Part shown: in pieces, positions 5,100-51,600 of the stretch
How the letters are laid out: each line of letters begins with the position of its first letter
Position numbering within the stretch: position 1 is the stretch's first letter
Assembly: GCF_006345805.1 (NCBI RefSeq)
Contig: NC_043005.1
Coordinates: 81,964,001 to 82,028,000 of the forward strand
Length of the DNA stretch: 64,000 bases
Direction of reading: 5' to 3'
From: Octopus sinensis
Taxonomy: Eukaryota
Position numbers and translations under genes: made by a program
The notes under the pieces: model-generated
Seen by the model: only the letters and a program-made list of their open reading frames with translations
Database searches by the model: none
Told to the model about the DNA's origin: nothing

Positions 5100-5275
5100 T
5101 TTTACTCTTTTACTTGTTTCAGTGATTTGACTGCGGCCATGCTGTAGCACCGCCTTAGAGTATTTTAGTCGAAGGAATCGAATCCAGAACTTATTTTTTG
5201 TAAGTCAGCTACTTATTCTATGCCGAACCACTAAGTTACGAGACCCTAAACACTCTACAATCGGCTGTCAAGACG
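5100..5275 (-). mobile_element. 3' part of CORE-like SINE (family C)
   Basis: TTTTACTTGTTTCAGTGATTTGACTGCGGCCATGCTGTAGCACCGCC matches the tails at 52808 and 55060. Confidence 0.8.
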
Positions 5276-5279
5276 GGAA

Positions 5280-5614
5280 GGATGGCTTCCCTTTCACTGG
5301 AAAAAGGATATATATTTGCAAAGGGAGGCCTACTTTTCATCGACAACTGCTGATTGTTACACGCTGATGACGGGTCAATAACCAGAAACTCGGGTCCGTG
5401 TGTATTGTAGGTTGAAGACAGGAAGTATGGCTTCCTTTTGCAAATACTGATAGGGCACAGAAAGTGTGTCAATAGCCAGCTGGAGAAGGTGTCCTCCTGG
5501 GGCTACAAGCTACAGTAGCATCCACTCTTAGGGGTTATCCACATTTAAGTGGCAAATATACTTCACGATGTGTTGTAACTACTGTTCATACCTCGCTCAG
5601 AGAATTATTATTGC
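5280..5614 (+). mobile_element. ~340-nt hammerhead-bearing repeat unit (retrozyme or Penelope pLTR-like, family H1)
   Basis: Homologous to the reverse complement of 29636-29980. It contains a hammerhead at 5358-5402 and runs directly into (TA)n. Confidence 0.75.
5358..5402 (+). ncRNA. Minimal type-I hammerhead ribozyme
   Basis: Stem I TACACG/CGTGTG; core CTGATGA at 5364-5370; short stem II GGT/ACC; GAAA at 5385-5388; near-palindromic stem III ACTCGGGT; GUC cleavage triplet ending at 5396. Confidence 0.8.
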
Positions 5615-5698: not shown

Positions 5699-8600
5699 CG
5701 GCGTAGCATAGATTAAGGGATGATTCTTTCGTATGTTCATATCTATCCATATATCTGTCTGTCTGTCTACCTAGCTATCTTTCTATATATCTATCTATCT
5801 GCCTGTCTATCTATCTTTCTTTCTCTATCCATCTTTCTTTCTCTTTCTGTGTCTCTCTCTTCATATATATACGTACATGTATATATACAACGTGCATGTG
5901 CCTTTAAATGTGTACATACCTGTATATCATCTAATCATATGTTATAAGCGTTATCCTGTTTATATTGTTTCTGTGATATATGGTGTTCGTAGAGAAAGGG
6001 GATGTCAAGATGCCTTTCACAATACATTTCTGTATATACTTGTTTATCATTATTTGAATACACATAGAAACACGCAATCAAACACGCACAAATACACACC
6101 TAGATATATAGTAATGAGTTAGAATAATTTACGGTGATGTCTTCTCTATGCAATAATAGAAAATATCCTCCCTTGGTAGAGCTATAAATATTTCGTTCAA
6201 CAAGTAAATACGCTAATCCCTGTACAGAATTTTACAGCTAAACCTAATGAATTAGATTTTTCATTTAGTTTTACAATTTTTAAAACATTCAATATCAGTG
6301 CATTATGCTGGTCTCCTCAAAATTATTTCCATTCACATTCTGCTAACAATGAACACACATTCATTTATGCTTATCCGACTACCCTACAGGAGATAGATAA
6401 AATTTATAGATATTTATAATAACGTTTAACCACATTTCACATTTCTGACAAATTTTATTTAACGCAGTTATTTATTGAAGATTACTATTTGTAAATCTCT
6501 CAACGAGTTATTTATATCCGTAACTTTTATAGCAAGATAATAGATTTTACTATAACAAAGGATGCTGGGAATCATTGAATACCAAATAACTAATAGTAAA
6601 GAATGTATATGTCTCCATAAGCTTTTAAGGCTAAATGTTTAGCGCATATTTGCTAGAATAAAGCAGATACGATGCAAATATTGCACTAAGTCTATCACAT
6701 GTAATATTTTGGTAGCTCCGAGTCAACCTTATACCATATGAATAAAATTTAGTTGACGGAACCTGTATAGAAGCTCATTAGAATTCTATACACTTCGTTC
6801 CTATGATACAAAAGAGTTCCACGTTAAACGTTGGACAAAGATTTTGAGGTAATTACAAATATATGATCCAAACGTTCATTATGCAAGATGAAAAGATTTT
6901 CTTGAAATCTGAAGGTAGTGGAGAATATTAATTATAAGACGTGCGTTGTCGGTTGAAATCAGTTGTGGGTATTTTCTAACTTTTCTAACTACAAAACTAA
7001 AATTGTATTGTCACCGCCCACATCCTGTCAATAGCTATTAAATGAGCGAGTAATGTTACATGTAGATGCACTATGGCCGAATGGCCAAGTTCACTTTTCA
7101 TTCATAATGTCTAGAGTTCGATATTTGCTAAGTGTCATTAACTATTATTCCAAGTCGATTTATGTCTTGTGAATGAAATTGGGTACACAGAAATTGTGTA
7201 TGAACCCGCTGGATTCATTGAACATTTAATTCTAATGTTTAGCGTTATGAGAGTGTGTCACGCTGACAGGGCCTGAGTTTTACGTTACAGTGCATGATTC
7301 TGTGGAATACAGCATAGCTGATACCCTAACTCAATGACATGGATAGAAGAGTTGATAAAAGAAATGAAAAATAAATGGGACTCAAACTGAATTTTCACTA
7401 GAGAGCTTAATTTTTACCTGTTCAATCAACTGAACTAACCTCGCTAAAATTTGAATTAAAGTGGCTGAGTATTCTGGACACAAATGTATATTGTTAACAT
7501 TATTATTATTATTATTATTATTAATATCCTACTTTATATCGGCACAACTCGGTACGATCCCATAAGACTGCTGTTGTAAGTTGGAATCACTAGGCCGTGA
7601 CCGACAATAAATAATGCAATCAGCTTGTCAATCCACCGCCTTAGTTTGGTATATTTTTAATGACCTTGTAGGGTTGAACGGCAAAATTTAAATTACTGCT
7701 ATTTGAACTTGCACAAGCGAGAGTCAGAGCTAATGTGTGGAATTTATATCCAGCGCTCTATTGATTCTACAATTTCACCAAACCTAGGTGTGATATAGTT
7801 AAGTATCACTGAATCTGTTAATCCGCAAGTTTCATTAATATGTGGAACTTTAATGTCAAAGGGAAAGTATCGCTATTCTGCAAGCTACTCACTCTGTAGC
7901 AAATATAAAAGGGGAAACGGGGTATTTTAATGGCTCTTCCGTGAGAAATTATTGCTTAAAAGAATTACAACGGCTTCGACATTCATTTGAAACTGTGTAG
8001 CGAATTCAGCTCGGCACAAAGCTGTACAGCATTAATCATAGCGTTCCACACAATTACCTTAAAACTACCGAGCTAAATGTTCCTTCTGTGTGGCCCCAAA
8101 ACAATTTCACCATGATAGGATATATAAGCACTGCTACGATGGAAACGAACATAGAGGTTATCTTTCATACCTACTCTAACATCCAATACATTTCCATACC
8201 GTATCACAGCAATGGTGTAATTGTCGTCGTAGTAGCAGCATTTGCTCAACTCTGATCTTTCTGCCTGAAGAAAATCTAATGAACACTCTGTAACTAGAAA
8301 TAGCCCATATAATATTTTTATTTCTCTTATATCGTCTATACATTACTTCAACCTTCACACATTTCCCTGATATTGTTGTTTTGTTTTCATATATATATAT
8401 ATTTAGGCTGTATGGGCAATAAATCTTTAAGATGAAAATCCTAGGGTGTGATATACGATTCACAATTCAGTATGAATTTGTACGTGCTGTTTCAGGTTGT
8501 GAAACATAACAGCCTGAATATGATTGATTATCTTAATAATTTATCCTATTATCTTATAACACCAGCTAGAAATCACGCTAACGTGTTCACTATCTGATCT

Positions 8601-9136
8601 AAACGTTCGCACAAAAGTTACACTATCCAGAAACAGGGAAACAGCGTAGCGTAGAGAAGAATATTGTTTCTATTCTGGAAATGAAGTTAGTGTTAGACTA
8701 TAATGCTGTCTATGGGCACTTACACATTTCAAAACAAGATATGTCTAAAAGCAAGACACTGAAAGAAAGATTACGTGTTTTCGTAAACCATTTAATTACA
8801 GAATATACAGAATGGATATCTTTACGAACACACAGATTTATGGTAATGTTCAAGGCTTTCCTTCAAATCCATGGGATTGTAGGTTCGATTCATGGGCTGG
8901 GAGATGCGATGAGAGTGGCACTTAATTTAAAGTGCAGCCTACTTTCCCTACCATTGTCACATGCTCTTATGCGGGTAATTGCTACAAGCACACGTGCTCG
9001 CACACGCAGAGGTACACATATATATTATATATTTCCTTTTTGGTGAAACATTGCAAACTGCTGTCTATATTAATTTTCTGTATAAAAATTTGCGATTTGT
9101 TAAGTCATCAAAAGATTTCTGTGATGAAAACATAAA

Positions 9137-9526
9137 CGTAGTCTGATCAATAAGTATCCGGACTGAAACATAATAACGAAGCTAAAGCACGCAGAGTAAA
9201 GCTACTTGGCAGACACTGATTTTGATCTCTGCTGTTCATGCGCACTAAGTCTTAACATTCTAGCTCGCTGCCGCTGTTTACAGCAGTGCTTGGAAGGAAA
9301 CTGTGTAGCGTGTGATCGCCGCATTGGCCATAACAGTTGTGCAGAGAATCAGCATCAAATTTTGTCAAAAGCATGGCGATAACTGCTCAGAGGCCTACGC
9401 AAATTTTTCGAAAAGTTTTTATCGTTCTCGACACTGACTATGTGGTAAGTAGCTTGCTTGCGAACCACATGGTTCCGGGTTCAGTCGCGCTACGTGACAT
9501 CTTGGGCAACTGAAAGAAGCCCGTCA

Positions 9527-9583
<57 letters not shown>

Positions 9584-10354
9584 TTGTGTTTGTCCCCCCT
9601 GCATCATTTGACAACCGACGCTGGTGTGTTTACGTTCCTGTAACTTAGCGGTTCAGCAAAAGCGACCGATAGAATAAGTGCTAGGCTTACAAAGAATAAG
9701 CCCCGGGGTCTGTTTGCTCTACTAAAGGCGGTGCTCCAGCATGGCCACTGTCAAATGACTGAAACAAGTAAAAAAGTAATCAAGGAAACCTTGTGCAACT
9801 GAAACCCGAGTGTCTTTTTCGTCCGCTGAAAACAGTTTCGTCGCAAACTTGGCAGACATGCGTCTCGTACCCAAATCTTCAGTGATAATGGACTGAACTA
9901 AATCGTAACCAATCTGCACACCTTCTCATAAGACACAGTTAGTGATTCAACGATTTCCCCTCACAGCTGCATTGTTTTTCTTAGTTCTGCTCGTTGTGGG
10001 TCTCCCAGAATGTTCATCACTATTCACATATTTCGACTATCTTCGAAACGTCTGAACCAGTCGTACATTTGTGTGCGACTCATAACTCCTCTCCATACAC
10101 TTTCTACTACTTTGCGTAGGCCTCTGAGCAGATATCGCCATAACAACCTTTTTATGTCAGGGGCAATGTGACGATTCCACACTACTCACCTTCATTTCAC
10201 GCAGTGCTGTAAACAGCGGAAGTAGGCTAGAACGTTAAAACTTAGAGCACATGTACAGCAGAGTTTAACGGCAATCTGCGCCAATCAGTTTTACTCTGCG
10301 CGTTTTATTTTCGTTACTATTACAATGGTTCGGATACTAATAGATCAGACCTCG
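9137..10354. mobile_element. Mariner-derived inverted dimer (two 5' ends) with decayed N-terminal transposase
   Basis: TIRs are GTCTGATCAATAAGTATCCG and CGGATACTAATAGATCAGACCTCG-TA. The left arm (+) encodes QRISIKFCQKHGDNCSEAYA. The right arm (-) encodes MSRTQMYDWFRRF...SGRPTTSRT...IITEDLGTRRMSAKF, a mariner HTH region up to the degenerate WVPH linker. Confidence 0.85.
9432..9775 (+). mobile_element. CORE-like tRNA SINE (family C) nested in the mariner dimer
   Basis: Head TGTGGTAAGTAGCTTGC...GGTTCAGTC, then CTTGGGCAA, an internal (TA)n/(TG)n tract, and tail GGCGGTGCTCCAGCATGGCC...GAAACAAGTAAAA. Confidence 0.85.
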
Positions 10355-10445
10355 TATACTGACAGGTAATTAAATCCGGAATCTGCCGAAGTCGAGCCAC
10401 ACCTTCCTGATGAGACAACGGAAATTGCATAATGTATAAGGAATT

Positions 10446-10494
<49 letters not shown>

Positions 10495-10498
10495 TAAA

Positions 10499-10690
10499 GT
10501 TAGTCCAAACATGAAAACACAAAGAGAAAACCCAACAACGCGAGGACGTGGAACAAGTATAGTATTATTGGACGCGCAGGAAAGAAGGAGGGTTTAACGT
10601 TTCGAGCGGAGCTCTTCGTCAGAAACATAGAAAAAGGAAAGATCCAAAGAAGGGAAGACGGAGGGAAAAAATTCGCAAAGGTATGCACGT
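10499..10690 (-). mobile_element. Penelope pLTR-like fragment with hammerhead (family H2)
   Basis: Near-identical to 57730-57890 on the opposite strand; its 3' end abuts (TA)n. Confidence 0.75.
10592..10626 (-). ncRNA. Minimal type-I hammerhead ribozyme
   Basis: The minus strand reads GTTT-CTGACGA-A-GAGC(TCC)GCTC-GAAA-CG-TT-AAAC: stem I GTTT/AAAC, stem II GAGC/GCTC, palindromic ACGT stem III, GUU cleavage triplet. Confidence 0.75.
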
Positions 10691-11002
10691 GGTCACGAAT
10701 TCTCTATGTGTATATGTGTGTGTGTGTGTGTGCGTACGTGTACAATGGGCAAGTGTATATCAAAAGGTACAGTTTAGGGGGTACAGGCTTGGTAGGTGGT
10801 CAAATATCTAAATTTCTAAAAGTCAATGTCTTAAAACAATTAATTAGGTTAAAAATAAAATGCATGTTAAACCTTTTCAGTTATTTCAAGGATCCAGTGA
10901 CAAATTGATGCAGTAATAAGCATTATGCGTATGAATTACTATTGACAAATTAATAATGAAATAAACATTGTCGTCAACTCATTACTTCATTGATAAAGAT
11001 TA

Positions 11003-11384
11003 TCTCTCTCTATATAAACGGCAGTTTGTCTGTGTGTGTTTCTGTGTGTCTGTTTGCTTGTACCCTCACCCTGACCACGGCTTTCAACCGATTCTGATGA
11101 AACTTGACACACACATAGCCCAATGTCATAATTCAAAACTAACGCAGCGAAAATTTTGAAAAGTTCCCCCAGTTCTGAAAAAAATCGATAAATTCGACAT
11201 GGGGTCGAGAATCAGAAACACAAACCACAAACTGTCTAGGGAACGCAACTCCACCTTTTTTAACTCTAAAAAAAATTTACCATCATTTTTTTCCATTTTT
11301 TTGCTATTTTTTGGCTATAACTCTCTAAAAATGCTTTATAGTTATTTCCCTTACAAACCTGAGCAACGCCGGGCGATACTGCTA

Positions 11385-11385
<1 letters not shown>
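11003..11385 (+). mobile_element. Non-autonomous Helitron-like element
   Basis: It starts A|TC (TCTCTCTCTATATAAA) and ends CTAG|T, with a GC-rich subterminal hairpin CCTGAGCAACGCCGGG and no TSD. Confidence 0.75.
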
Positions 11386-11432
<47 letters not shown>

Positions 11433-12408
11433 ACACATATATATATGCAATATGTATATATATACACACGCACATACATTTATCTATCTATCTGTCCCTC
11501 TCTCTGTATATCTGTCTGACTCTCTCTCTCTCTCTCTCTCCCTATATATATATGTATATATATATATATATATTATATATATATATATACATACATACAG
11601 GCACACACACACATATATTTGAGATACAAATTTTCCCAAAGAAGAAAGTAAAAGTGAAAGTGACGTTTCGGACATAGTTCTTCATCGGATAAAAAAGAAA
11701 AAAGTGCTGAAAGGCGTGTGGTAACGAGGGACTAAAGATAAGCGCTGGTTAAAAATGAAATTCTATGGAAAGGAGTTAAGAAGGAATTTAGCGAGCAGTT
11801 GCGTGGAAGTAGAAATATTTTGTTTAAGATGAGGATTGCCATATATATTTCCTACTCATAAAAATACAAGAAGGGTTGGTAGACTCTTTTGCCTGCAAAC
11901 TCTTGGATACTCAACAGTTTTAGTTGAGACTTGTTTCGAACTTTTACAACCTACTACGAGACCGTCGTGTTCTATATTTACTACTGTTTAGTAAAGTTCA
12001 TAACAGTACCCTTTGATTCGTAGGGGGACTTCGCTGTTATTACTTGTAGGTGAAACTACTGTTTAAAAGTATCTGTCTTTATCTAGAAAGTGAAAGACGT
12101 TTTAATTGTGATTCGTATAGTCAGAAAAAGATTTACAAATCTTGGATACGTGTAGCGTTCTTGGAGATTAATGTGAAATCTGCACATTATTAGATGTCTA
12201 CGTTTATTGTACAATAATTGGTGAAGACGGCAACAGGAAGATAAGGAAAAAAAAACCTAACGATAGCTATGTCACTATAGCGATAACCTTAATATTTTCT
12301 GTTGTTACTTATGCTTCGAAAAGGGCACTAGAATGTCAACGAAGACAATAAGTGGAGAATAATGATTCTCTTATCGCTACCACTAATAAAACCTCTGCTG
12401 CAAATGCA

Positions 12409-12445
12409 ACTACTGCTATTACCACCACCACCACCACCACCACCA

Positions 12446-12516
<71 letters not shown>

Positions 12517-12531
12517 GTTGCTGTTGTTGTT
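12409..12531. repeat. (ACC)n/(ACT)n trinucleotide microsatellite
   Basis: Read directly; it explains the poly-T/V/S/L ORFs here. Confidence 0.95.
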
Positions 12532-12799
12532 AAGCAACAACACGGGTAAGGGTGATTAGGTGATGGTCTGAGACCCCTGACCTTCGAAAAAAAAACAAAC
12601 TTTGGTCGTCTTTTTGTAGTCGAGGGCTCTTCGTTGACGCCCGACACCCCTGGGAGGTAGCCCTCGAATTCGCTGGAAATGGAGATGTCCAGGTCCAAAT
12701 TCTTGGACGTCTGCTGCTGCTGCTGCTCTTACTACTTGTAGTAGTTGTAGTAGTTTCTAATAAAAGGCTATTACTTTTGAAAGAAGGAATTGACTCGAA

Positions 12800-12920
12800 G
12801 GAAGGAGTCGTATCGACCCCAGCACTTGAGTAGAGCTGTATGATATCGACCTCGGAGGGATGAAGGGCAAAGTTGAACGAGGTGGTATCGTAATACATTT
12901 TGACCCACGCTCGAAAGACT
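12800..12920 (-). mobile_element. Degenerate family M SINE
   Basis: ATCGACCCCAGCAC...ATCGACCTCGGAGGGATGAAGGGCAAAGTTG resembles the family M body. Confidence 0.6.
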
Positions 12921-13372
12921 TTTCCGATTGACCACTTTAAACAACAGCATCAACAATAGCAGACATAAGAGAAGACTACCACCATTATCGCAACCGTCAA
13001 CACCACCACTGTCACCACAATACCCGCCACCACGGCCAAATGGACGACGAGTAGAAATGAAGAAGCTTAAGAAGGATGCGCAGAGACAGCAGTAGTTATT
13101 GATGATGATGATGATGACGGGAAGAAATGAGGAGGAGGGAACGGAGAAGGTAGAGGACGAAAAAGAAGAAAAAATTTGGAAACGAAGATGAAGAGCAAGA
13201 AGAAGAAACAGGAGACGGAAGAGGAAAAAGAGGAAGAAAACGATGGTCATGATGAAGGGTGTGGTGATGATGATGACCAGGTTGATCGTGATGCTAAATA
13301 ATGATGAGAAAATGAAGACCATGCATAATAAAGGGAAAAAGGATGATCATCAATACAATGGCGATAAGTAAA

Positions 13373-13408
<36 letters not shown>

Positions 13409-13585
13409 GTTGTTTATTCTTTTTCTTTTTTTTGGTCCAATATATTCTCTGCGAATAAGAAAGAGAATAATCAGCTCTTAAATAGGAAGAAATCGTTAAC
13501 TATAAATAAATCTATTTTAGAAACTATTGGATTTTTCGGCAATGTTCGTTGCCGAATAAAGAGATAAAAAGAGAGAGAAAGGGAG

Positions 13586-13638
<53 letters not shown>

Positions 13639-14229
13639 AAGAAAGAGAAATAGCAGACAGTCGGAAAGAAAGAGAGGCACAAAAACGCCCCTTTTCCATG
13701 AGGTATTTCCATCAAGTTCATTAAAACGATCAGATTTGATTGGCCATTTAATATGTCCTAGCTTCTCGCAGGCAGCTATCTTGTTTGTTATTGATTGCAG
13801 CTGTGCTTACAGTGAACCTACATCAGTTAACGAGTATAACAAGATTCTCCCTTTCATTGCACAATAAATAAATCAACAAATAAATGCACCAATAAAAGTA
13901 AGAATAAACAAATGAGTAAATGAAATAGATATATATATACAAAAAAAAAGGAAAACAAAGAAAACGGACAAACGAAAGTACGTAACTGGATGCAAGTGTA
14001 GGAAGGGAAATAAGGAAAAGAACTTATGAAATCAAGAAAAAGAAAAAAGTATTATGGACAGACAGTTCTTGGCTGATAACAATGTGTGTGTATGTATATG
14101 TGTGTGTGTATACGTATATGTATGTATATATGCATGTATATATATATTATTTATATTATATATATATATTCCTTTATATTTATATATATATATATATATA
14201 TATTCCTTTATATTTATATATATATATTC

Positions 14230-14261
<32 letters not shown>

Positions 14262-14266
<5 letters not shown>

Positions 14267-14285
14267 TTCACTTATATACAAATGT

Positions 14286-14317
<32 letters not shown>

Positions 14318-14364
14318 GTATATATATATATATGTATATATATGTATGTATATATATATTTATG

Positions 14365-14395
<31 letters not shown>

Positions 14396-14729
14396 GTATA
14401 TATGTGTATGTATATATATATATATGTGTATGTATATATATGTATATATATATATATATGTGTGTATATATATATATGTATATATATATACCACATATAT
14501 CTCTGCATGTATCCATGTTGCTGTCTTCTCGTTCTCATCCTCTCTCTGCTTCACTCTGTCTCTGCCTTCATATAGATACACATACATATATACATGCATA
14601 TATATATATATAATATATATATATATATAAGTTCACTTATATACAAATGTATATATATATATGTATATATATATGTATGTGTATATATATATATATGTAT
14701 ATATATATGTATGTATATATATATTTATG

Positions 14730-14760
<31 letters not shown>

Positions 14761-14959
14761 GTATATATGTGTATGTATATATATATATATGTGTATGTAT
14801 ATATATATGTGTATGTATATATATATGTGTGTATATATATATGTATATATATATACCACATATATCTCTGCATGTATCCATGTTGCTGTCTTCTCGTTCT
14901 CATCCTCTCTCTGCTTCACTCTGTCTCTGCCTTCATATAGATACACATACATATATACA

Positions 14960-14991
<32 letters not shown>
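14262..14991. repeat. Near-perfect 365-bp tandem duplication within an AT microsatellite field
   Basis: AAGTTCACTTATATACAAATG and the unique block CCACATATATCTCTGCATG...GCCTTCATATAGATACAC each occur twice, 365 bp apart. Confidence 0.9.
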
Positions 14992-15011
<20 letters not shown>

Positions 15012-16151
15012 TGCATGTGTATGCAAGCACACACGCACACATAGGATAGACACACACGTATGTGTGTGTACATATGTTTTTTAACTGTATAAATCAAAAT
15101 AAAAACAACACATTAGCAGTCAGTTTCTTTCTGCTGATAACAATATACATGCTTACATACGTACATGCTTAATACACATATACATATTTTCCATTTTCCA
15201 TATATAATACTCCATTTTTTTACATCCGAAAGATATCTTTCGAAATATTTCTTACTTTTGTTTCTCTTTTCCTTTTAATATTTTCTTCTATATATTTATA
15301 TTTTACTGTTTGCCCCGTTGGTCTGTTTTATTCAATGCTGTACTTTTGTTGCTGTTTATGTATATTTATATTTTCTCTTTCTTCCATTCGAGAACAATGT
15401 CTTTGATTTCGTCTTCATGCCTTCATAAATCGATCACAGTTTTCTTCATATTCTTTCCCATTGAATTATTTAGATCTCTATACTGATCACTAGTGGACAT
15501 GTAAATAAACGTGTATGTGAGCATGGAGTTAGTGACTTAATGAGAGAGAATGTGCTTTGTGAATATAGAAATTTCAACACTAGAACATCTCGTCAATATA
15601 TTGTGAATACAAAAAGACAAGAGAAAACCAACAGAGACCAATCCCCCCCTCTCTCTCTCCATGTAAATATTGTTGGAAGAAATGAACTTTTCACCAAAAG
15701 ATCATAAATCAGTCATCAATTATAATGTTTAATTATAAGATTCGATCACTAAATATTGCAGTAAGAAAACTGTGTATTTGGTTATTTCCAAAGCTGTCAA
15801 CGGCAGAAATAAACTAGCCTCGGTATCGATAAATACAATCATTAGAGAAAGTATTAGGGTTTAGTTCTCGTTATTTTCTCTCGGAGCAAGCTATTTTTGC
15901 TTATAATAAGCCAGTTCTTATAAGGCTAGTAAACTAGAGAGGAAGATAAATCAGCTGACAGGAAGCATGACGACAGAAACATTCACTGTTTTCTCCTTGT
16001 TAGCTTGACCCAATATGAAACAGCGAACGCCTTCAACATTTTAATAACTATATTTTATCAAAATATATTGAATTCTTTTTGAACATTTGCTTTAGGAATA
16101 TTCACATACACATTTTCCCCGATAATATAATGGTAGCATTATTCATTTTGT

Positions 16152-16460
16152 GGAGGCGCAATGGCCCAGTGGTTAGGGCAGCGGACTCGCGGTCGGAGGA
16201 TTGCGGTTTCGATTCCCAGACCGGGCGTTGTGTGTGTGTTTATTGAGCGAAAACACCTAAAAGCTCCACGAGGCTCCGGCAGGGGGTGGTGGCGACCCCT
16301 GTTATACTCTTTCGCCACAACTTTTTCTCACTTTCTCTTCTTGTTTCTTGAGCAACGCTGCGATGGACTGGCGTCCCGTTCAGCTGGGGGAACACTTACG
16401 CCACAGAAACCGGGAAACCGGTCCCATGAACCTGGCTAGGCTTGAAAAGGGCGACGTTTA
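16152..16460 (+). mobile_element. tRNA-derived SINE with V-domain-like motif (family V)
   Basis: A-box TGGCCCAGTGG, B-box-like GGTTTCGATTCCC, and GCGATGGACTGGCGTCCCGTTCAG resembling the V-SINE domain. TTATTCATTTT flanks both sides as a TSD-like repeat. Confidence 0.85.
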
Positions 16461-16894
16461 TCGTTTATTATTCATTTTATGTAGCTTCATGTCAGATATG
16501 TAAGACCAACGACATCCTAACGGTGGCTATCCTATTTTCAGTATATCTTAGTATATCTAAGAGCGTATTTCTAAATGCTACCTTCATCGTAAAGACAATA
16601 AGATATGAAAGCTGCTAAGATGTTTGGCTGTTTTATCGAAAAAGTTGATTACCTTGATCGCCCTTAGTTTATTTGATAACAGTGAGATGTAATGCACAAG
16701 GTATTTTTGATATTGGCTCTTTAATTTTAAACCCTGTACTATCAAATCTAGCTATCCAGCTCGTGGTCACGCAAACACTTATGCATGAAAATATACCACT
16801 GAAACGGAAACATCTATCTAACCATCTTTGTCTGTCTCTCTCTGTCTCCGTATATATATATAGTATACACACATATACACACACTGATATTTAT

Positions 16895-16966
<72 letters not shown>

Positions 16967-18427
16967 GTATATATATGTTTAGACATGCATATATATATAT
17001 ATATATATTAACATATATATTCATAAGACTACTAACACGTTCACATTTATCAACGGTGTACATCCAAATTTGTTATACTACACTAAGTTGCTGACTTTCG
17101 GAAAAAAAGGATATTAACACAGAAAATATGTTGAAAAACAGAAGAAAAAAAACAGTTTCAAAAATAAGTTAAACGGAGAAAAGAAAAAAGCAATGAATTT
17201 TTGATGGAATAAAATATATTATTTCAAAAATAGACATTTATTTCTTGTTTTCATAGTTTTGAAAATGTCATAGTGTGATTACTATTTAATAATATATATT
17301 ATCTATTTCTAGATAAAACACCAAGAAAAAACAGTATCAGCAACAACAATAACGTCAACAATGACGATTAAGCTGATAGTATTATTATTATTATTATATT
17401 ATTATTATATTATTATTATTATATTATTAACGATAATAATAATAATAATAATAACAAAAGTCTCGCATGTTGTTATTAGATTTCCGACATTTTAGAAATG
17501 ATTGTTGTTATGTTAAGTGAGAAGAGAATATAAAAAGTGTGTCTATGTTTGTAAGTGTACGAATGACGCTTGTTACTAAAAGCAAACACTCACAATCAAA
17601 CAGACGATGAATAATTGTTATCCTTTTTTTCTAAACGGAAACAATAATCACGTACATCTATACTAAAAACAATGAACTTCCATCGCAGACACGGCCAACA
17701 CACACATACAGTCGTATACACTCACTTACACACACAACACATAGAACTATAAACACTCATATATACATTTGCCCTTTTTGTATTTCTCTCACACACTTAT
17801 ATTGCTATGTATGCAATCTCGCTCTCAATCACACTCGGACATACAAGCACACATACCGACATACACACACACATTTATACATAGATACACACACACATAC
17901 ATACATGAATACGTATATACATACGTACATACATACGTATATGCATAAATACATGCATATATACGCACATATACATACATACATATATACATATTTACAT
18001 ACATGCATATATACATATTTACATACATACATACATACATACATAAATACATACATACATATATAAATACATACATACGTACATACATACATACGTATAT
18101 CCATCTATATCTATCTCCCAGTACTTACTCATATAATATTCACAATAGATATAAATATTTCGCAAGCATAAAGAAAATATTATTCTGGCGTAAAACGATT
18201 TAGCAGAGCGTTCCATAAACATGGATATATATCTTAGAGTAATAACATTGATGGATGAAGACAGCCAAGATAAAATGCGAACCAAAAGTAAATCTTGGCT
18301 ATAAGTAATTTTTCTGAAAAAAGAAAAAAAACGATATTTATAGATTTATCTTTGAATATGAAATCGTGCTTCAAATGTCCTACGTTTAAAATAATAAGGT
18401 GATAACATTGCAATCATACTTAATATA

Positions 18428-28264: not shown

Positions 28265-29520
28265 AAAAAAAATGACTTCACTGGTAGTTCTACTTAATTT
28301 AATTTCCTAATAATATGATTTTTAGAACTAGTAAGTTCTTTGTTAACTTCGGTAGGGAGATGTTCTAAAATTTCCATGGAAACCTTTCTGGAGAACTTTC
28401 TTGCTTGTCAAACTGATCTCATGTTTTGTTGTACAGTGTGATTCTACATATAAGAGATTTGGGTGCGTCTGAGGTGGGGTTGCGATTTGTTAATAACTGT
28501 GGGAGTGAAGGAGTGTTGATGAACAACAGCTGAAAGAAAATAGTGAATGGTAAAAACAAGATAATTAATTGAGGGGGAATTTGGGTGGCGGTGAGGTTTT
28601 TAAGGAGTCTTTTATGAAGTGCTCTCCTGGTGGTTCCATTTGAACATTTCTATCAACAAACATTCCAAAAGTAACCTTATATTTTGTTCTCTCTGGTATC
28701 ATCCCTTTTTGATCAAAAGACACGTATCTTATTTTTTTTATTGCCCACAAGGGGCTAAACATAGAAGGGACAAACAAGGACAGACAAGGGGATTAAGTCG
28801 ATTACATCGACCTCAGTGCGTAACTGGTACTTAAATTATCGACCCTGAAAGGATGAAAGGCAAAGTCAAACTCGGCGGAATTTGAACTCAAAACCGAACT
28901 GCAGACGAAATACCTATTTCTTTACTACCCACAAGGGGCTAAACGCAGAGAGGACAATCAAGGATAGACAAACGGATTAAGTCGATCACATCGACCTCAG
29001 TGCGTGACTGATACTTATTTAATCGACCCCGAAAGGATGAAAGGCAAAGTCAACCTCGGCGGAATTTGAACTCAGAACGAAGCGGCAGACGAAATACTGC
29101 TAAGCAGTTCGTCCGGCTTGCTAACATTTCTGCCAGCTCCCCGCCTTAAAAGACACCTATCTTGCAGCTCAAAACACCCCGCCCAGTCACACACTTAAAC
29201 TCATCTTTAACATAGTATATTACCGAAGCTTCTCTTTATGAAATTAAGAGAATTTGTAAAAACATCTGACAATTATACTTTTCACCAGAGGCCAACTACT
29301 CAAATGGAATCATGAGGAGGGCAATTCTCCAGAAATGTTAACAAGGAATCTTTTAAAAAACGTACCCATCGAAGGTAACAAAGTACTTACTAATTCTAAA
29401 AACCAAACTAAAATTATATTTCGTTTTTGGATTTGGTTTGCAAGATTCTTTATGCGTAAAATTATATTATTAGGAAATTAAATTGATTAGAACTACCACG
29501 GAAGTAAGATTTTCTTTCCC
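28265..29520. repeat. Old long inverted repeat (arms ~28265-28480 and ~29165-29520)
   Basis: GGTAGTTCTACTTAATTTAATTTCCTAATAATAT pairs with ATATTATTAGGAAATTAAATTGATTAGAACTACC, and TTTTAGAACTAGTAAGTTCTTTGTTA pairs with TAACAAAGTACTTACTAATTCTAAAA. Confidence 0.75.
28731..29145 (-). mobile_element. Dimeric family M SINE
   Basis: Junction GACGAAATACC|TATTTCTTTACT at 28914; TSD AAAAGACACGTATCTT / AAAAGACACCTATCTT. Confidence 0.9.
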
Positions 29521-29635
29521 AAATATACCTAACTGTACCAAAGATTTCACACTTTTTCTAATATATAAATATGTGTGTGTGTGTGCTTGTGTGTGTGTGT
29601 GTGTGTGGTGTGTGTGTGTGTGTGTGTGTATGTAT

Positions 29636-30199
29636 ATCGTAAAATATAATTGCCATCTAAATGTTGTGAACGATCCTACCGTTGTTTTTAGCCCCAGGAG
29701 GACATCTCCTTCAGCTGGTTAACCACACACTGTTTGTGTCCGATTAGTATTTGGGAGGAGAAAACATCGTTCCCATCTGTAGTCTTACGTGATACACACA
29801 GACCCGGGTTTCTGGTAGTAACCCGTCATCAGTGTGTGATAATTACGAGCTACTGCTGAAAACTCATTCCACACGCAAAGTACTATATGATTTGTCCAGT
29901 GACAAACTGTCGCTGATCTCGCAAAGGGAGAAATAAGCAATATTAAATCTCTGAGCGAGAAGTAAACTGTAGCAGTAAGGAATCGTAAAATATAATTGCC
30001 AACTAAATGTGGAGGTCCCATAGAGGATGGACACAGACAATGTGTCGTTAGCCAGCTGGAGGAGATGTCTTCCTGGGGCTACGAACAACAGTAGCATCGT
30101 CCTCTATGGGACCGCTACATTTAGTTGGCAATTATATTTTACGATTCCTTACTGCTTTACTGCTACTATTTACTTCTTACTCAGCGATTTACTATTGCC
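29636..30199 (-). mobile_element. Family H1 element: partial tandem (346-bp period) plus inverted copy
   Basis: ATCGTAAAATATAATTGCC occurs at 29636 and 29982 and is inverted at ~30127-30145. A hammerhead lies at 29795-29838. (TG)n/(TA)n flank the element. Confidence 0.8.
29795..29838 (-). ncRNA. Minimal type-I hammerhead ribozyme
   Basis: The minus strand reads CACACA-CTGATGA-CG-GGT(TACT)ACC-A-GAAA-CCCGG-GTC-TGTGTG, with a 6-bp stem I and a perfect palindrome ACCCGGGT in stem III. Confidence 0.82.
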
Positions 30200-30221
30200 T
30201 GTGTGTGTATGTGTGCGCGTC

Positions 30222-40702: not shown

Positions 40703-41119
40703 TTTGAAAGGATGCTACCAACGACATCATGCACTTAAGGAACTAAAGTAGCACAGTAAATGTCACAAATATTTTACTCATTTTTTAAAACTTAAGTCTT
40801 GAGTAAGTGTCATTTTTAACAATCCGTGTGAAACACTGTTCTACAGATGTGTGAAGCTCACCAGTGATTTCATAATGGATAAGCTACCAATTTAGTTATA
40901 TAGGCATGGGATATGGTTACTGCAGAGAAGGAAAGAAAGGTTCTCTGTCGTTTCGAGCACAGCTCTTCTTCAGAAACTGCAGAGAAGAGAGAGAGAGAGA
41001 GTGAGATAGTTCGGGGTAAGATGGGGACAGTTTGCATAAAATGAAAAGAAACCATTATATTTCATCTAAAGATAACATGTTTTTTTAATCAAAAGATATG
41101 TACCAGATAATGTCTAGGG

Positions 41120-50569: not shown

Positions 50570-51600
50570 AAAGAAATATATGCTATACATATGACAAACC
50601 TTCCAAATTATAACAAATCACTAAATAAATAAAAGGACGTGATTGCAAACAAACTCAATAGATTTCCATTTAAGCATACAGCATTAAATGCTTACAGTTT
50701 GGACATAACCCAAACAAAACCAATAACTAATGAATAAACATAATTATAGAATATATTTAAACTAATATTTTCACCTGATACGCATACAAAGATGGCTAAA
50801 ACAAACAAATCACGTTGAAAATATTTTTCATTAAAATCAAGTAAAGTCCATTTGCTGCGAAGAAAATAACGAAATCACTCACGTGTTAGCGACATCGCTG
50901 CGAAAAACCAAAAGACGGTTAACATTCAACAGGTAGAAGTCCATTCCATCCTCCTAACGGAAGTGATGCTGCAAACAATACGATATAACAACCAATTCAT
51001 AAACTGCAAAATAGCGACTTCACTTTCACACTTAATTAAAACAAACAGCGTCTAAGAACTCCGCTGAATTGCAAACTGGCGACCATTCCATATTTTCTCA
51101 AAATTTCACTCTCCTTCCCAAAGCCACAGTTAGAACATTTACTTAATCTATTCTTATGGTAATCCTGTTTCTCCATTTGTATAGATAACTTTTTAATTCT
51201 CTCCAAGCGCATTCCAACTTCATTTATAATTCTACTTTATCTAATAACCTGAATTCTTACAATGAATTTTACTTTTCGCCGAGGGTAAAAATCAATGCGA
51301 AAATAAAGAACTTGCCATAAAACATTTTTTTTTTCATTTAGACTTAAAGTCTAAAAGTTAACCCTACCTATCATGTTACCATTTCTAGTCGCTTCTAGAC
51401 CATTCGGATAGATTTTCTCAAGAAAATATTCGAAATAGTTTTAGTTATGAATAGCAATATCATCGATGTATTTGCAACATCTGCTGAGTTGTTTGATTAA
51501 ACCTTTTACCTTCGGTATAGATAATTTTTTCGCATGAAAACAAATGAAAAACCCACTAATGAAGAGCTGCAATTAACCGCTCCCAGAAACATTGGAATTC
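50570..51600 (+). pseudogene. Possible very old Penelope-like RT remnant
   Basis: Colinear faint motifs: SLDIT; DFTF...KQRLRTPLNCKLATI (cf. YFTF..YKQ..GTPMG..AP); CIDNFL (cf. YIDD); NNLNS; LPFL. A decayed hammerhead-like motif follows at 51553-51595. Confidence 0.35.

Follow-up and report, generated by a model that had tools for sequence, protein, structure and literature searches.

A two-armed insertion of a hammerhead repeat family in Octopus sinensis, with features of a non-LTR retrozyme and ends of the Penelope type

Introduction

The retrozymes without long terminal repeats (non-LTR retrozymes) described in mussel, axolotl and coral (PMC7229834) are built of non-coding units of 150-450 bp, each with a type-I hammerhead ribozyme, and animal retrozymes have been described in vertebrates, insects and coral (bioRxiv 10.64898/2026.07.22.740005). 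Here we analyzed a stretch of 64,000 nt from the 2.72-Gb genome of Octopus sinensis (assembly GCF_006345805.1, contig NC_043005.1, positions 81,964,001 to 82,028,000 of the forward strand; hereafter, the window), in which an initial annotation had pointed to a hammerhead repeat at positions 29636-30199. Here, a non-coding repeat of ~355 nt has been inserted once, with two head-to-head arms and one type-I hammerhead. We read it, with a probability of about 0.63, as a decayed two-armed insertion of a hammerhead family that behaves as a non-LTR retrozyme and is pasted by a Penelope-type reverse transcriptase (RT)/GIY-YIG protein. Directly observed are the closed unit, its seven subfamilies, a covarying structure, a palindromic helix III, ends of the Penelope-like element (PLE) type and site-specific parasites.

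Like the retrozymes of PMC7229834, the octopus unit has, besides its size, lack of coding and ribozyme, a low GC content (0.44-0.46, i.e., below 50%, in subfamilies A-E), a self-paired predicted circle, target duplications longer than 4 bp and resident PLEs. Among the variants reported there from axolotl, some likewise present a helix III that is short and palindromic, or a helix II with a mismatch at its base. It differs in being found mostly as dispersed insertions of 0.5-1.5 units and not as arrays (the longest arm has 3.9 units). Inverted arms, paired short and tailed ends, an internal promoter (predicted in the octopus unit) and site-specific parasites do not appear in the main text of that paper as far as we saw it.

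The endonuclease-bearing (EN+) clades of PLEs (PMC8557442), including Poseidon of Anolis (PMC11167929), share with the octopus unit 5' truncation, partial tandems, an inverted 5'-adjacent copy and a tail at one end, as well as targets that are either AT-rich or (TA)n, a pair of RT start sites and a palindromic hammerhead of the dimer type (PMC6765202). The unit differs from PLEs in that it has no open reading frame (ORF), is closed upon itself, carries a tail of 45 nt rather than 30-40 nt, possesses a full extended helix I and shows no homology to three PLE families resident in the same genome. Newt satellite 2, from a different phylum, is reported to be a hammerhead satellite with a small nuclear RNA (snRNA)-type promoter (PMC2220036), and would share with the octopus family both the tandem hammerhead unit and the promoter type, the latter being predicted here from a match of motif and distance. 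As for cephalopods, 235 Rfam hammerhead-1 matches are listed for the giant squid genome, with no analysis in the part of that paper that we saw (PMC6962438), and our partial literature search, which did not extend to the repeat databases Repbase and Dfam, revealed no report of a cephalopod retrozyme or of a long interspersed nuclear element (LINE) that targets a hammerhead repeat. The class is a known one, and at the sequence level the octopus family belongs to it by unit length, absence of coding, hammerhead and target duplications of 11-14 bp. Further features of the octopus family are a rule that pairs the ends of two-armed insertions, a putative promoter resembling the proximal sequence element (PSE) of snRNA genes and a LINE that targets the hammerhead unit.

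Results and Discussion

Arm 1 of the insertion (29636..30027, minus strand) contains 1.13 units of subfamily A, running through unit positions 268>358>1>313 to a short 3' end, with 90% identity to the subfamily majority. Arm 2 (30029..30198, plus strand) is the inverted part-copy already recognized by the initial annotation; it covers unit positions 197>358, stands head to head with arm 1, so that the 5' ends of the two arms adjoin, and ends with a 45-nt tail. An internal copy of this tail, lying between the two fixed 3' ends and in phase with unit position 1, is found within arm 1 (29937..29981, minus). Possible target-site duplications, both weak, are two identical 13-nt sequences at 29621..29633 (plus), within a TG microsatellite, and at 30200..30212 (plus). 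The type-I hammerhead, recognized by motif and covariation (29788..29851, minus), has an extended helix I and a palindromic helix III (ACCCGGGU), with C3 at 29832 and predicted cleavage after 29801. It had been called intact, which holds for the core bases, all of which are present on the minus strand, but not for the helices, as one C is gone from helix II and the distal part of helix I carries a G>A change relative to the subfamily majority. A PSE-like motif of putative promoter function (29904..29921, minus) matches a motif ~58 nt upstream of the U1 and U2 genes of the same genome. The predicted transcription start, unit position 80, falls at 29857 (minus), which is the LINE target site in other copies; in the window copy, the base next to it is mutated.

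The 346-bp period reported for the locus is present as a direct repeat at this spacing, but is a local feature, resulting from an 11-nt and a 1-nt deletion in the 358-nt subfamily A unit. The absence of coding capacity noted before was confirmed, with the longest stop-free frame being 110 aa in the A unit and 88 aa in the B unit, and an ORF with RT and GIY-YIG domains, as in autonomous PLEs, is missing from the unit. The sequence of the window copy suggests a decayed relic that, with its one weakened hammerhead, would be unable to release a monomer, and it is very likely dead as a source. A tandem arrangement with two hammerhead sites, absent here, exists in the family (L032 and L035, with complete motifs).

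A homologous copy near 5280-5614 had also been noted and proved to be a separate insertion of subfamily B (5294..5614, plus; unit positions 35>355, tailed end, 94% to the subfamily majority), with 71-77% identity to the first locus over 81-220 nt (E down to 4e-26). Its hammerhead core lies at 5364-5396 and it lacks the PSE-like motif. A 25-nt piece of unit positions 156-180 (5270..5294, plus) is joined to its 5' end, through either a template jump or a deletion. The block order that had been described as a circular permutation between the two copies is real, but is explained by the variable 5' ends of copies of a closed unit, without a separate rearrangement.

DNA searches with three subfamily queries returned 2484, 3064 and 1720 first-look candidates, of which 40 per query were scored, and in 107 unrelated loci, with a total of 354,825 bases, the unit contributed 941 bases. 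From these two measures, we estimate that the family probably numbers thousands of copies. Seven subfamilies (A-G; A is that of the window copy, and G rests on four loci) have majority sequences of 351-358 nt that are 66-93% alike. Median identity to the majority is 89% in A and 93-94% in B-E, while F arms mostly reach 95-99%; copies of the young subfamilies C and F are up to 99% identical to the majority. At unit positions 29-33, the hairpin loop of subfamily B is the exact reverse complement of that of C, which suggests a template-switch inversion. Contigs of three sequencing runs guessed to be RNA and of one DNA-like run (4 of the 24 listed) contain many diverged pieces of the unit, mostly 90-95% alike, some of which run into unique flanks at the short end; such contigs are blind to strand, ends, level and circles. 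For insertion anatomy, we used 215 loci (after dropping 7 overlaps) with 315 arms of at least 60 nt each. These loci support the earlier proposal of a non-autonomous, hammerhead-bearing family. Tandem multi-unit copies are few, most copies being dispersed insertions with scattered 5' starts.

Comparison with the Rfam hammerhead models, which had been suggested as a check, gave no hammerhead match in 29640-30200 at E<=10, none among the 150 matches listed of 207 in the window and, in three younger loci, none that reached the gathering score. It is thus from motif and covariation that we call the ribozyme. Between subfamilies, 9/10 core bases are invariant, as compared to 187/363 columns overall, with C3>U in F and G being the exception, and both core and palindrome are retained over 34% divergence. 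Among the seven majority sequences, 20 of the 102 predicted pairs change on both sides, these being located in hammerhead helices I and II, in the surrounding rod and in hairpins elsewhere, and in 20 natural copies, the same is seen for 9/29 pairs. The circular folds of subfamilies A-E have z-scores of -3.4 to -8.7.

Helix III is palindromic in every subfamily tested (ACCCGGGU, ACUCGAGU, ACUGCAGU and, in F, ACUAGU), with subfamily D presenting the wobble form UCGG. A hand count of the first 100 of 262 pattern matches yielded the loops TGCA (33), TCGA (24), CCGG (3), wobble TCGG (15) and others (25), i.e., a perfect palindrome in 60 and the wobble form in 15. A short palindromic helix III marks hammerheads that cut as dimers (PMC6765202), and this switching among palindromes is what would be expected of a dimeric ribozyme. 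Preferential conservation of the core, the lack of which the initial annotation had listed as a refutation, was found between subfamilies but was not clearly seen within subfamilies A, B and F, where changes in core versus other positions numbered 30/392 vs. 1112/12629, 12/320 vs. 521/9635 and 6/364 vs. 322/15011, respectively. A core that decays about like the rest would be expected for dead copies.

The 3' ends of the 315 arms fall into 142 tailed, 121 short and 52 others. The two fixed ends lie 45 nt apart, at unit positions ~312 and ~357, whereas 5' ends are scattered, and 153/315 arms cross a fixed, in-phase junction into the previous unit. The 215 loci include 83 head-to-head pairs and not a single tail-to-tail pair. 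Where both ends could be classified, 56/58 head-to-head pairs combine one short with one tailed end (p=6e-15) and two are short+short, with 25 more pairs being unclassed. As the two ends are used in pairs, this suggests one RT start per strand. In PLEs, the tail has been tied to two internal RT start sites, and a protein predicted to act as a dimer was shown to prime on both strands (PMC11167929).

Targets are AT-rich and duplicated over 11-14 bp. Duplications of at least 9 nt flank 10/15 non-microsatellite F loci, as compared to 6/412 control pairs (of 29 F loci, 24 were examined and 5 were set aside as interrupted or complex), and 9/20 C loci, as compared to 9/732 control pairs. Dinucleotide repeats make up 53/109 of the 3' flanks against a background of 214/3531 (6%). 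Minor alleles are common to both arms of one insertion in 52/64 cases in F and 19/21 in C, as opposed to 18-20% between loci, so both arms usually come from one haplotype. Features described for PLE-mobilized insertions (PMC8557442), namely, 5' truncation, an inverted 5'-adjacent arm, a tail at one end and an AT-rich target, are found here, and the PLE-type mobilization that had been proposed for the window locus thus fits the marks of 215 insertions. In the papers cited here, PLEs are proposed as helpers of animal retrozymes because of co-occurrence and of likeness to PLE pseudo-LTRs (pLTRs); the octopus family adds marks at the level of single insertions. The near-strict pairing rule, moreover, constrains how a PLE makes two-armed insertions.

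The unit might instead be no more than the pLTR of a coding PLE yet to be found, with the copies being its truncated 3' ends, a possibility that the initial annotation had itself raised as a refutation. Vertebrate retrozymes do resemble pLTRs, and 24 of 57 Xenopus families matched known transposable elements, nearly all of them PLEs (bioRxiv 10.64898/2026.07.22.740005); the PLE families compared here, furthermore, number three. These were seeded from GIY-YIG fragments in flanks (with Pfam scores just under the cut-off) and represented by 30 loci each. None of the three shares the unit, which occurs in their 90 loci as nested copies only. Beyond position 1, arms cross the fixed junction and run on into more of the same unit. 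Among 75 free 5' flanks, the sole upstream sequence shared at one unit position proved to be the 3' ends of two L1-type elements (5 flanks); other abutting flank pairs looked like common repeats, and three flanks with PLE fragments bore them at non-homologous positions. We thus consider a pLTR origin to be improbable.

The three coding families (L093-L122, L167-L196 and L197-L226) are abundant, with 7566-17207 first-look candidates, and are candidate helpers. In one of them, nearly identical copies contain open frames of 778-854 aa, and in two, both short and tailed 3' ends are visible by eye.

A motif centered on ATCAG is common to the upstream regions of 20 U1 genes and the single U2 gene, at -56 to -59, and a matrix built from U1 only also finds the U2 site. 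In the hammerhead unit, a PSE-like site at unit position 20 is the best site on either strand in 7/7 subfamilies. It lies 56-60 nt before an A at 76-80, the predicted start, where the LINE duplication begins, as compared to 56-59 nt in the snRNA upstream regions. An internal snRNA-type promoter in the unit is therefore likely, judging from motif and spacing. No match to the snRNA 3' box was found in the units with one simple pattern. A likeness between unit positions 195-225 and the U2 upstream region, first seen by eye, was dropped, as it did not score above shuffles. In one PLE locus (L169), about 270 nt into the stretch scanned past the GIY-YIG match, the 3' region contains a weak PSE-like sequence, ATCAGTGG (score 5.5).

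Which RNA serves as template can be addressed by considering the ends. Of 185 arms, none terminates in 3' direction at the cleavage site, nor do 5' ends pile up there (2/25 nearby). Since the ends avoid this site, the cleaved linear monomer is not the template, leaving a circle or an uncleaved multimer. We favor the circle, as few possible sources (9/315 arms) combine the promoter motif with two hammerhead positions, and as these would become shorter with each round of 5'-truncating copying from a linear RNA, and yet the family was renewed through seven subfamilies. A circle that restores length should, however, be taken as an argument and not as a result. In the cycle that we propose, a multi-unit locus would be transcribed from the putative snRNA-type promoter inside the unit, with the start located about 25 nt ahead of the ribozyme core. 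The hammerheads would pair via their palindrome and then cut, and the monomer would be ligated into a circle. The PLE protein would nick both strands of AT-rich DNA and prime cDNA at unit positions ~312 and ~357, each cDNA would extend back over 0.2-4 units, passing the cleavage site and the unit junction, and both would finally join head to head.

The same family and the same PLE helper could, however, operate with a linear RNA of several units that stems from a small number of tandem loci and is left uncleaved, with long arms arising via long sources, template jumps or DNA-level duplication, such that no circle is needed. Unprocessed RNA was the dominant substrate of a PLE in vitro (PMC11167929), multi-unit loci do exist (8/315 arms have at least 2 units, and some loci are 97-100% identical internally) and 5' ends are slightly more frequent than expected at the predicted start. 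Yet, the unit junction is in phase in 153/315 arms, and no recurrent jump from the start or the cleavage site was seen. Core and palindrome, moreover, were kept between the diverged subfamilies, even though cutting without ligation would presumably strip promoter and ribozyme from the cDNA. As coding PLEs likewise keep their hammerheads, this is no proof. Overall, we regard the linear template as rather unlikely, although it is the most serious competitor of the circle.

Some results weigh against the retrozyme reading with its promoter and circle, and need to be considered. In vitro, a PLE protein used uncleaved RNA and the hammerhead was dispensable (PMC11167929), while only one of nine Xenopus retrozyme dimers was cleaved (bioRxiv 10.64898/2026.07.22.740005). 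In the octopus, the base of helix II contains a C.A mismatch in subfamilies A-E, C3 is replaced by U in F and G, and the predicted minimum-energy fold of the monomer is an inactive rod rather than the ribozyme. The partner PLE was not found, as the unit forms the 3' end in 0/90 loci of the three coding families. For the PSE-like site, the numbers of shuffles, of 200, that scored as well in the seven units were 27, 1, 8, 9, 3, 151 and 30, the site being weak in F (151), A (27) and G (30), and as the seven units are related and hence not independent, the result counts as one observation. The predicted start shows a marginal accumulation of 5' ends (10/96, p=0.053), the two arms disagree in 3/18 F loci and the insertion loci were picked by best hits and exact patterns, and so are not a random sample. 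The young subfamilies C and F, together with resident PLEs with long ORFs, nonetheless make the choice between circular and linear template directly testable.

Five of the 75 free 5' flanks abut shared sequence just before the hammerhead, and this led to two elements, termed c and b. Their seeds were found via the unit, while later matches were fetched with the element sequence alone. Element c, an L1/Tx1-type LINE in which the Tx1 label is putative and follows from site specificity, with no named Tx1 reference among its matches, is 5.4-5.5 kb long, with an ORF1 (with a zf-CCHC zinc knuckle just under cut-off) and an APE-RT-zfRVT ORF2, the best solved-structure match of which is human L1 ORF2p (E 2e-62). 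Of 29 further 3' ends of this element, 22 are followed by the unit, at positions 73-78, and 4 by no more than the target 12-mer, while 3 adjoin neither. In 13/18 loci retrieved at length, unit sequence borders the element left and right, with ~16 bp duplicated, and the element ends with AATAAA. Several copies (L295-L300, L303-L306 and L308-L310, e.g., L297:1526-7050) retain long stretches of ORF2, such as 1134 aa in L297, and present tandem re-insertions. In one case, element c sits at +1 of a U2 snRNA gene (L244:1919-2112, L302:3010-8390), and this copy carries at its 5' end 15 nt of the retrozyme unit, from -1/+1. In both the U2 copy and a copy inside a B unit, the 5' piece comes from the unit of another subfamily, which makes it likely that transcripts of the LINE start within the unit.

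Site-specific Tx1 LINEs target U2 (Keno), transposons, microsatellites and unnamed satellites (Keno, Tx1-Mar and Tx1 in Tx1D; PMC4494074), and element c shares with this clade the two-ORF APE-RT organization, a fixed site in multicopy sequence and tandem re-insertion. It differs in its target, the predicted start of a hammerhead repeat and, once, U2 +1, although 'satellites' being among the listed Tx1 targets in that source leaves a precedent possible. Such a LINE provides copies with long ORFs, a new type of target and an independent pointer to the transcription start of the repeat.

With an RT of its own and a close association with the unit, this LINE might itself be the helper that moves the unit. 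The two, however, insert differently: The LINE uses one fixed site, 15-18-bp duplications and an AATAAA end, while insertions of the unit are at AT-rich sites and show duplications of 11-14 bp, a pair of fixed ends and arms in inverted orientation, and it is coding PLE families, two of them, that show two 3' ends by eye. We consider such a role to be very improbable.

Element b is 1.9 kb long, contains only an ORF1-like frame and is inserted at unit positions 86-101 (L228:554-2425, L262-L290), ~10 nt beyond the element c site. Its 3' ends run into the unit in 18/29 cases, mostly at 86-91, into the target only in 7/29 and into neither in 4/29, and two off-target copies have 15-18-bp duplications of their own. 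Co-mobilization of element b with the unit found no support, as there were no convincing duplications around composite blocks. By hand count, arms that carry element b have 19 short and 4 tailed ends, as compared to 121:142 in the family.

Taken together with the retrozyme reading, these parasites allow us to tentatively propose a system of three tiers, albeit one that we hold to be somewhat less probable than its alternatives combined. A hammerhead circle, transcribed from an snRNA-type promoter of its own, would be pasted by a PLE dimer that fires once per insertion from each of the two start sites. The unit would in turn provide both an insertion site and a promoter to a LINE lineage directed at start sites of the snRNA type (the unit and U2 +1), a lineage that carries the first 15 bases of the unit as its 5' end.

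Other features of the window were also seen. Two tandem 184-bp copies of a common repeat resembling a short interspersed nuclear element (28733-29097) are unrelated to the hammerhead locus. Two minimal hammerhead-like motifs of another kind (10596-10622 and 40937-40973, both minus) resemble, by eye, a motif near the 3' end of PLE family L093-L122, with no BLAST match to this family at 1e-6. Finally, a broken RT-like fragment with a KYIDD motif at about 51300-51600 (minus) is possibly a PLE remnant.
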